Part shown: piece by piece, positions 25,991-27,554 of the stretch
How positions within the stretch are numbered: the stretch's first letter is position 1
Layout of the letters: every line of letters starts with the position of its first letter
DNA from: Escherichia coli
GTDB taxonomy: Bacteria > Pseudomonadota > Gammaproteobacteria > Enterobacterales > Enterobacteriaceae
Length of the DNA: 64,000 nt
NCBI RefSeq assembly: GCF_003991155.1
Contig: NZ_CP031293.1
Strand: one strand, 5' to 3'
Notes under the pieces: model-generated
Told to the model about the DNA's origin: nothing
The model's database searches: none
Seen by the model: the letters and a program-made list of their open reading frames with translations, nothing else
Program-made: the position numbers and the translations under genes

Positions 25991-26759
25991 AGCGTGAAAT
26001 GCCTGAGTATGCCGGATAGCTTCAGGCAAAAGAATAATGATTCTTGCAGATGTGTTTTTCCGGATACAAAAACAAATGATAAAAATTGCAGCGCCAGGCA
26101 TCTTTCAAAGCAGGGAGACCTGTACCGCGTCGAAAATTTCAGCCAGTTAATATCATTGTCTGAACCAGGCACTTTGCCCGGGCAGGAGAAGGAGTTGTGG
26201 CGGTCTCAGCCCGGAACAATTTGAAAACCATAATCTCGCTTAGGGCCGTGTCCACATTACGTGGGTAGGATCACTCCTGGATTTTCTCTTTTTGGACATT
26301 GACGTCTCCATTGGTTTAAACACGGTAATGGAGACTGCGGTGAAAAGAGTTAATTCCCGGAGTGACTGGCTGGATGCCAATCAATGATCGGAAGCATGCT
26401 AAACTGTGAACGGAGATGGATGCCGCCAAATCATGATCGATTCAGATGCCATATTTGCAATATCGCGTTAATCATCAGTTCAGCCGGGATATATTAGCGG
26501 GCCAGGGATCCGGGAAAACGCCACCTGATTGCCACCAGACAATTTCTTCTTCAGAAAGAAAACAGTTAATTAAGGCGGAGGTAAAATCATGGACTTCATC
26601 AGAACGCCCTATAATCGTTAAATGGCATCTCCTGTCTCCAAACCGCCCCAGAGTTTCTGCAAAGCAGAGCGCTCTTCGTGGGTCAGGTGATTATCAGGGG
26701 CTGCCAATACACCGGAATTCCAGTAGCTGATAAACTCCAGATTGATGCTTCCTGCGGCC

Positions 26760-27350
26760 TGGTTCCAGAGCAGAGCCATGTCAGGTCTTCCTGGTAGCCA
26801 GAAAAAGCCTTTATTACGATAATTACGTAGCGTTCAGTGATGATCTGCTAATAATATTCTGTCGATCCGCTAAGTGTCAGTGTATGCGGTAAGCCCGCCC
26901 TTGAGTCACTATTTGGCAACTGCTACATCTAAGGTGACGTTATTCGCTGGCGCCGATATTTTCTCGATGGGAGATAACCCTGCACACTATGCAGTGTAAT
27001 ACTCGAGCTACTGCAAGGTTACGCAATTCAGTCTTTACTGCCGTTCTTACATTCGATTTGGGTATGAAGGCTTTCATCGTTTTAACACCTTTCTGCAATT
27101 CCATTGTTCTGAGAGCTTTCCACCGCTGTTGTACAAGGTATATGGCACAGTTGTGTCATTAACTTCTGTATTTCGTCAGTGAGAACCCGGTGATTACGTA
27201 GTTCATCTTTTGTCCAGTGGATTGGTTGCCGTATAAAGGATCTTATCAACAAAGCACAGTTCCTCTATGTCAGCGACGACGTAGTGCTATGGCTCTTTCC
27301 CAAACGCCCATTTCTGACTGTTCCTGCAATGCCGGTTAGCTGTCACTATT
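26760..27350 (-). pseudogene. Degraded transposase remnant (no intact ORF)
   Basis: Short minus-strand reading frames with integrase-core-like motif fragments (..NNGIAER..) interrupted by stops. Confidence 0.25.
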
Positions 27351-27554
27351 TTTATGGATTCGATAAAAAATCTTCATCATGTATGATCGATTTTGTCGAT
27401 CGATTCGATCGAATTTTCTCCTTTTACCCTGCCTTTTGCATGGTTTTAAAATAGGCAAAATTACTTGTCATTCGTGGAAAGTGATGGCGGAGATAACTGA
27501 GCTTAAAACGTTTCTCTTGTCTCCGTCACTTGCCATACCAGCCAGGAAAAGAAG

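Follow-up and report, generated by a model that had tools for sequence, protein, structure and literature searches.

Mosaic structure of the segment downstream of papX

The window analyzed here, a 64,000-nucleotide stretch of Escherichia coli DNA, is from a uropathogenic E. coli island with a pap/prs operon that carries the papG-III allele. The operon ends with papX (Table 1), which is annotated in RefSeq as 'HTH-type transcriptional regulator PapX' in genomes that are 100% identical at this locus. Other papX and sfaX loci align with the window past the end of the gene, up to positions 26191-26205 (91-99% identity), and diverge thereafter. The DNA that follows, from 26196 to 27252, consists of four truncated pieces placed end to end. 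The breakpoints, as revealed by sub-searches, are sharp and fall at 26195/26196, 26273/26274, 26459/26460, 26822/26823 and 27344/27345.

Table 1. Position and strand of the features between papX and the next gene module of the window
Feature	Position	Strand	Remarks
papX	25439..25990	+	183-aa ORF; last gene of the pap/prs operon
papX 3' flank	25991..26195	+	common to other pap/sfa operons
End of an ISEc16-type IS3-family element	26196..26273	+	last 78 bp; orfB end (...GLSPEQFENHNLA, stop) and right inverted repeat ...GGTAGGATCA
Left end of an ISSso4-like IS21-family element	26274..26459	-	186 bp; terminal repeats and istA leader; tip ...TGCA at 26456-26459
istA Shine-Dalgarno relic, CCAGGAG on the minus strand	26274..26280	-	from comparison with L005
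Hairpin, apical stem-loop of the istA leader	26304..26335	-	stem of 9 bp here, 10 bp in the closest intact variants
CUCCGGG, candidate anti-Shine-Dalgarno segment	26356..26362	-	inferred from the predicted pairing
Degenerate terminal direct repeats of about 23 bp	26375..26459	-	TTTGGCAT-N6-CGATCA type; presumed IstA sites
CobW/COG0523-family GTPase pseudogene	26476..26822	-	C-terminal ~115 codons (C-terminal third), one frameshift
IS2-like remnant	26823..27252	-	~105 bp of 3' non-coding end and degraded C-terminal orfB (rve/rve_3)
Junction DNA separating the IS2-like debris from the next module	27253..27344	.	unassigned, without a separate match
Downstream module	27345..27923	+	conserved upstream region and 122-aa hypothetical gene (27555-27923)

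The piece closest to papX is the end of an ISEc16-type element of the IS3 family. It agrees at all 78 positions (78/78) with the 3' end of an IS3-family element of 1233 bp at another locus (L007), where the matching left inverted repeat is present as well, and the segments that match it at 100% are annotated in RefSeq as 'IS3-like element ISEc16 family transposase'. Both the terminal inverted repeat ending in ...CA and the 3' end of orfB, as expected of this type of element, were recognized, with only the last 78 bp of the element present. This end adjoins the leader of an IS21-type element, 4 nt short of the position where the ATG of istA would be expected.

Beyond the IS21-type piece lies a fragment of a CobW-family gene. 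Its product matched the Pfam CobW_C domain at 26.5 bits, above the cutoff of 22 (E = 5.9e-6), and shares 103 of 115 residues (90%) with the segment 285-399 of an intact protein of 399 aa from strain JA0257 (L006), with a nucleotide identity of 93.7% over positions 26425-26826. In RefSeq, the fragment is described as a partial 'GTP-binding protein' or as a 'CobW C-terminal domain' pseudogene. Whereas the intact homologue has an N-terminal cobW domain followed by CobW_C, only the latter is left in the window. JA0257 has the same IS21-type tip at this very site, 16 bp beyond the end of its intact cobW-family gene. Hence, the IS21-type element was in place before cobW was truncated.

The last of the four pieces is debris of an IS2-like element, also of the IS3 family. 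Megablast returned matches of 87.7% to an 'integrase core domain' pseudogene, and the segment from 26822 to 27117 shows 76.8% nucleotide identity to a pseudogene of the same description at a second locus (L008). A peptide stitched from the window aligns with the L008 peptide (E = 5e-14), and the L008 peptide in turn matched rve and rve_3 in Pfam and 'IS2 transposase TnpB' in NCBIfam (E = 1.8e-88). No Pfam rve match was obtained with the window peptide itself; ASL_C (E = 0.038), the sole Pfam match of the stitched rve-like peptide, was dismissed as meaningless. The debris would belong to the IS2 group by descent, through its L008 relative, its own rve domain being too degraded to score. The boundary at 26822/26823 is common to L008 though the flanks differ, and is without the usual TG/CA dinucleotide.

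Many genomes begin to match the window at 27345, where the downstream module starts; the product of its 122-aa ORF had no Pfam or NCBIfam match. Of 5426 complete E. coli genomes, 391 have the full 1561-bp arrangement in nearly intact form, and the locus is partly annotated in hundreds of public genomes; uropathogenic strains with the scar include F11 and FDAARGOS_1284. The high identity among the genomes that carry the scar reflects recent clonal descent and does not speak for selection. Judged by its matches in the databases, the scar between papX and the next cargo is made up of ISEc16-type, ISSso4-like IS21, CobW-family and IS2-like fragments, all of known families.

The initial annotation of the region from 26220 to 27360 had described a non-coding scar with only short broken frames, the debris of one eroded mobile element with integrase-core-like motifs on the minus strand of the 600 bp that follow a hairpin. 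The frames are indeed short, with no ORF above 94 aa in this interval, and the similarity of the region to mobile elements is strong. The motifs are accounted for in part: rve debris is present at about 26940-27252, but the first 350 bp beyond the IS21-type end (26476-26822) are the CobW_C pseudogene. Likewise, the locus is a non-coding scar of eroded mobile DNA that holds the hairpin, but three IS remnants and a CobW_C pseudogene contributed to it, not one element.

The left end of an IS21-family element and its hairpin

In intact elements annotated as 'IS21-like element ISSso4 family' (L004 and L005), the DNA that immediately precedes istA corresponds to the window segment from 26274 to 26412; in both, the shared sequence starts 5 bp beyond the istA start codon. 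Across the leader part, identity to the RefSeq-annotated ISSso4-family elements is 91-95%. The TGCA tip was placed at 26459 by comparison with the intact left end, and at the other side matches stop sharply at 26273/26274. The intact element of L005 is 2639 bp long, has TG...CA ends and is flanked on both sides by CATGGT, where the family has a short target-site duplication. The proteins of the intact relatives score above the NCBIfam IS21 cutoffs, with 285.8 bits for IstA (NCBIfam NF033546, cutoff 160) and 257.8 bits for IstB (NF038214, cutoff 200).

IS21-family elements carry at their ends direct repeats that are bound by IstA (PMC10122671). In the left end of L005, Tandem Repeats Finder detected a tandem repeat with a period of 23 and 4.3 copies. 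Six copies of the repeat, spaced by about 23 bp, matched our search pattern in this left end, as against two in the window. The TG...CA type of end with multiple direct repeats is nevertheless recognizable in the window, in the form of the tip and of degenerate TTTGGCAT-type repeats. The window copy has the same TGCA tip as intact ISSso4 elements and recognizable repeats of about 23 bp, with the hairpin and the Shine-Dalgarno sequence in register. It differs in that its left end is down to 186 bp from about 228 bp, with several repeat units lost or degenerate, in that istA, istB and the right end are missing, and in that one pair of the hairpin stem is broken. Only one IS21-type end is left, and the tandem istA and istB genes that define the family are absent. 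We conclude that the piece is the remnant of a family member, not a complete member, and that it cannot transpose.

The hairpin is formed by the inverted repeat GTCTCCATT-N14-AATGGAGAC, with arms of 9 nt each at 26304-26312 and 26327-26335 that are 100% complementary. The initial annotation had reported precisely this repeat, with perfect arms 14 nt apart, and had noted that the lack of a T-tract makes it an atypical terminator. We agree on both counts, as no T run follows the hairpin on either strand and a terminator scan returned nothing at 26304-26335. With Rho-independent terminators the structure has in common a GC-containing stem-loop that lies past a gene, here papX, in non-coding DNA; it differs from them in the missing U/T tract and in its long loop of 14 nt. 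An intrinsic terminator of papX was rejected for want of the T run.

By itself, the repeat is not unusual. The 64-kb window contains 30 perfect 9-mer inverted-repeat matches with loops of 3-20 nt, which amount to about 18 distinct hairpins when grouped; in first-order Markov simulations, the mean was 5.2 such repeat matches per 64 kb (sd 2.4). Chance could account for one perfect 9-bp repeat in 64 kb of sequence, and the hairpin is of significance only because it is conserved in related elements.

The leaders of such elements were gathered from 11 genome loci of the taxa named below and of others, four diverged plasmid copies and 81 metagenome loci, and gave 31 distinct variants. Twenty-five of these, the window included, were aligned (mean column identity of 84%, as expected of close relatives), and all 25 retain the hairpin. 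It is found at the same position of the leader in Serratia, Klebsiella indica, Buttiauxella, Rahnella, Enterobacter and Citrobacter as well as in metagenome contigs, and the hairpin-bearing sequence is present in intact ISSso4-family elements. In the istA-sense direction, which is that of the minus strand of the window, the order is terminal repeats, CACUCCGGGAAUUAACUCUUUUC, hairpin and GUCAAUGUCCAGAAAGAGAAAAUCCAGGAGcacuAUG. These comparisons show that the hairpin is a conserved part of an IS21-type element, with the 23-bp terminal repeats on one side of it and the istA ribosome-binding site on the other.

The initial annotation had instead proposed that the hairpin may be what survives of a terminal repeat, or of a recombination site, of the same eroded element that left the integrase-core debris. 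The hairpin does lie inside an IS remnant, and there is integrase-core debris on the minus strand. However, the hairpin is internal. It lies 124-155 bp inside the tip of the window copy (26459), and the intact element of 2639 bp has it at bases 167-199, counted from the tip. The intact element contains a single copy of the motif and none at its right end, so that the hairpin is not a feature of IS termini; the true termini carry TG...CA and 23-bp direct repeats whose sequence is unrelated. Moreover, the hairpin belongs to the ISSso4-like left end, whereas the rve debris comes from the orfB of a separate IS2-like element about 600 bp away, with the CobW_C pseudogene between the two. Where the hairpin lies in intact elements is already enough to refute a terminal-repeat origin, whose probability we regard as negligible.

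The window hairpin goes back to a variant whose 10-bp stem is perfect (L034 type); the tenth pair was lost by a G to A change (G-C to A.C), leaving the 9-bp repeat. The most plausible reading of this copy is that of an inert relic, since istA and istB are absent and nothing is left for it to regulate. Transcripts reading through from papX could still hold the plus-strand hairpin.

We also considered that the hairpin was co-opted within the island, as a 3'-end stabilizer or processing site for papX read-through transcripts or as part of a small RNA. The lack of a predicted intrinsic terminator between papX and the hairpin, the stability of the plus-strand RNA hairpin (-18.8 kcal/mol, z = -4.4) and the stable inheritance of the arrangement in the 391 genomes would all fit such a role. 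Against it, the sequence is fully accounted for by descent from the IS, and the window copy is decaying, with one stem pair lost and terminal repeats deleted. Other pap and sfa operons are without the IS21-type segment downstream of papX, and a scan of the neighborhood of 26304-26335 revealed no convincing promoter. The alternative raised earlier, that the region is conserved as a functional non-coding RNA, found no support in Rfam either: a search of 25900-27700 against Rfam 15 at a permissive E-value returned only two sub-threshold matches (E = 0.5 and 0.73), neither of them at the hairpin, and the intact IS had no match. Co-option thus appears very improbable. In all, we consider it highly probable that the locus is a four-piece scar in which the hairpin is part of an IS21-type leader and is, in this copy, an inert relic.

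Predicted folding of the istA leader in intact elements

In intact copies, the leader RNA, which corresponds to the minus strand of the window, is predicted to form a long irregular stem capped by the hairpin. In this structure, CUCCGGG would pair with the Shine-Dalgarno region, CCAGGAG, and CUCUUU with AAAGAG. Both the minimum-energy and the centroid folds of the intact leader have the hairpin nested inside the CUCC:GGAG pairing. Among homologous leaders, at least two of the four GGAG bases were predicted to pair with the upstream CUCC in 12 out of 12 cases, with probabilities of 0.53-0.99. The fold of the intact leader is modestly better than those of shuffled sequences (z = -2.3). With the Shine-Dalgarno sequence hidden in this way, translation of the IstA transposase would be kept low.

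In IS21, the -10 box is located in the left terminal repeat and the -35 box in the right one, and a strong promoter arises only at IS-IS junctions (PMC10122671). From the position of the -10 box, transcripts are expected to include the whole leader. A simple scan of the intact left end detected no sigma-70 promoter and no terminator. We found no paper describing a hairpin or a leader structure in the literature on IS21, istA or ISSso4.

The pattern of substitutions bears on whether the hairpin acts as RNA. Over the 10-bp stem in the 25 variants, 94% of the cells are paired, as compared to 36-59% when the partner column is slid. Two compensatory changes were found, one from A-U to G-C in L066 and the other from U-A to C-G in L023 and L035, the latter with U.G intermediates. 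The loop varies in length and sequence, and the stem is kept. On the istA-sense strand there are 21 G.U cells distributed over 5 pairs and common to several lineages, whereas the A.C cells are only 7, mostly singletons and some of them in visibly decayed copies; as a result, pairing is 94.0% on the sense strand versus 88.4% on the antisense strand. The strand-biased wobble together with the compensatory pairs favors an RNA hairpin on the istA-sense strand, with weak statistics: out of 500 shuffles of the columns, 60 reached the covariation score, and double changes are confined to 3 cells. The RNAalifold consensus has the hairpin and a small local helix of 4 bp, and does not include the outer helices. 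The columns of the outer helices are nearly invariant, so that covariation provides no evolutionary test of this part of the fold.

The main rival to a translation-limiting leader is a role of the palindrome at the DNA level. In intact elements it could be the site for a dimeric protein, either IstA or a host factor, that functions in the assembly of the transpososome or in the repression of istA transcription. The palindrome is just inside the array of IstA-type repeats, and binding of IstA to the ends of IS21 has been proposed to occlude promoter elements (PMC10122671). The stem is strongly conserved, most of its pairs being invariant or changed on one side only, and the lack of a promoter in the scan of the ISSso4-type left end also fits this view. 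However, the spacing between the half-sites varies in both length and sequence, which is unusual for a dimeric operator, and the arms are unlike the 23-bp repeats of the IstA type. In addition, the changes that are tolerated tend to be G.U-compatible on one strand (21 versus 7 cells), a property that is irrelevant to duplex DNA, and the two compensatory changes keep complementarity rather than sequence. On balance, a DNA-level site seems unlikely.

We return to the leader RNA. The predicted folds make it a serious possibility, just short of an even call, that the leader of intact copies hides the istA Shine-Dalgarno sequence and so limits the translation of IstA. More broadly, and more tentatively, we suggest that the hairpin may mark an undescribed cis-regulatory leader RNA of ISSso4-group IS21-family elements, of about 95 nt and organized in three tiers, that would sequester the istA Shine-Dalgarno sequence and set the rate of transposition, the window holding a dead copy of it.

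Implications and relation to known systems

The locus itself is of little significance, an ordinary pile of mobile-element and gene fragments. The scar is of use as a record of its own history: an element of the IS21 type went in 16 bp past the end of a cobW-family gene, cobW was cut short by an IS2-like element, and the end of an ISEc16-type element now adjoins the IS21-type leader, the DNA beyond being gone. Its five breakpoints can serve as markers to trace the pap(prs)-bearing island among uropathogenic E. coli lineages. What is new is only mildly so, namely a conserved stem-loop in the leader of ISSso4-type elements that is outside any curated RNA family. If the leader does control IstA translation, the IS21 family would join the insertion sequences that throttle their transposase by means of a hidden ribosome-binding site. 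The leader RNA would then set how often ISSso4-group elements transpose, and these are common on the virulence and resistance plasmids of enterobacteria.

Leader RNAs that limit the translation of a transposase are known from other insertion sequences, in the form of the stem-loop at the ribosome-binding site of IS200 and of the fold-back inhibition of IS10 and IS50. The logic proposed here would be the same, in that a fold of the 5' leader hides the Shine-Dalgarno sequence and little transposase is made. These elements differ from ISSso4 in transposon family and in sequence. The architecture of the ISSso4 leader would also be distinct, with the candidate anti-Shine-Dalgarno segment about 84 nt upstream and the capping hairpin in between. 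Another model has IS21 expressed from a junction promoter, with occlusion of the terminal repeats by IstA (PMC10122671). It concerns the same family, with the same direct-repeat ends and with transcription entering through the left end, but it deals with transcription and DNA binding at the tips of the element and does not involve a hairpin in the leader.

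The istA leader in other replicons

In E. coli O104:H4 2009EL-2071, plasmid pAA (L003) retains the same IS21-type leader, hairpin included, as a fragment at 4001-4128, with a truncated IS21-family transposase gene on one side and the 3' end of aggA on the other. Virulence plasmids, too, therefore carry scattered solo remnants of this left end.

In Serratia sp. DD3, two copies of the element (L011 and L012) encode an IstA that is 87% identical to that of E. coli. In both, a divergently oriented ORF, starting MKNVTLIGIDLGKHSFHV..., takes the place of the leader upstream of AGAGAAAAGCCAGGAG, and the altered stretch lies about 25-250 bp upstream of istA. 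This ORF presumably resembles the N-terminus of an IS110-family transposase. The two Serratia copies would show that this istA leader has been invaded by an IS a second time, independently, at a point between the hairpin and the Shine-Dalgarno sequence.

Sequences flanking the scar

Directly 3' of papX, a sub-threshold Rfam match to AgvB (20.9 bits, gathering score 56, E=0.5) was taken as noise. The sole terminator-like site returned by a terminator scan of 25900-27700 is a near-perfect palindrome, TCGATCGATTCGATCGA, which is followed by ATTTTCTCCT and located about 145 bp upstream of a gene for a 122-aa hypothetical protein. This protein had no match in Pfam or NCBIfam. In many E. coli, its gene is kept beside one for an outer-membrane protein, with adjoining integrase or IS remnants that differ. 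In an identical genome, a tyrosine recombinase gene is found farther downstream of the genes for the outer-membrane protein and the phosphoethanolamine transferase.

Features of the window on either side of the scar
Feature	Coordinates	Strand	Position
AgvB match (rejected)	25994-26062	minus	3' of papX
Palindrome	27387-27412		upstream of 122-aa gene
122-aa hypothetical protein gene	27555-27923		downstream of scar
Genes for an outer-membrane protein (251 aa) and a phosphoethanolamine transferase (500 aa)	28126-30565		3' of scar

An intact relative of the cobW pseudogene

In E. coli JA0257 (L006, 4001-8051), an intact 399-aa cobW-family gene is grouped with genes for a DUF4198 protein and a TonB-dependent receptor. 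The top NCBIfam model for the 399-aa protein is ZigA, with a score below the cutoff. The group looks like a metal-uptake cluster, and of its GTPase only the last ~115 codons are retained in the window.
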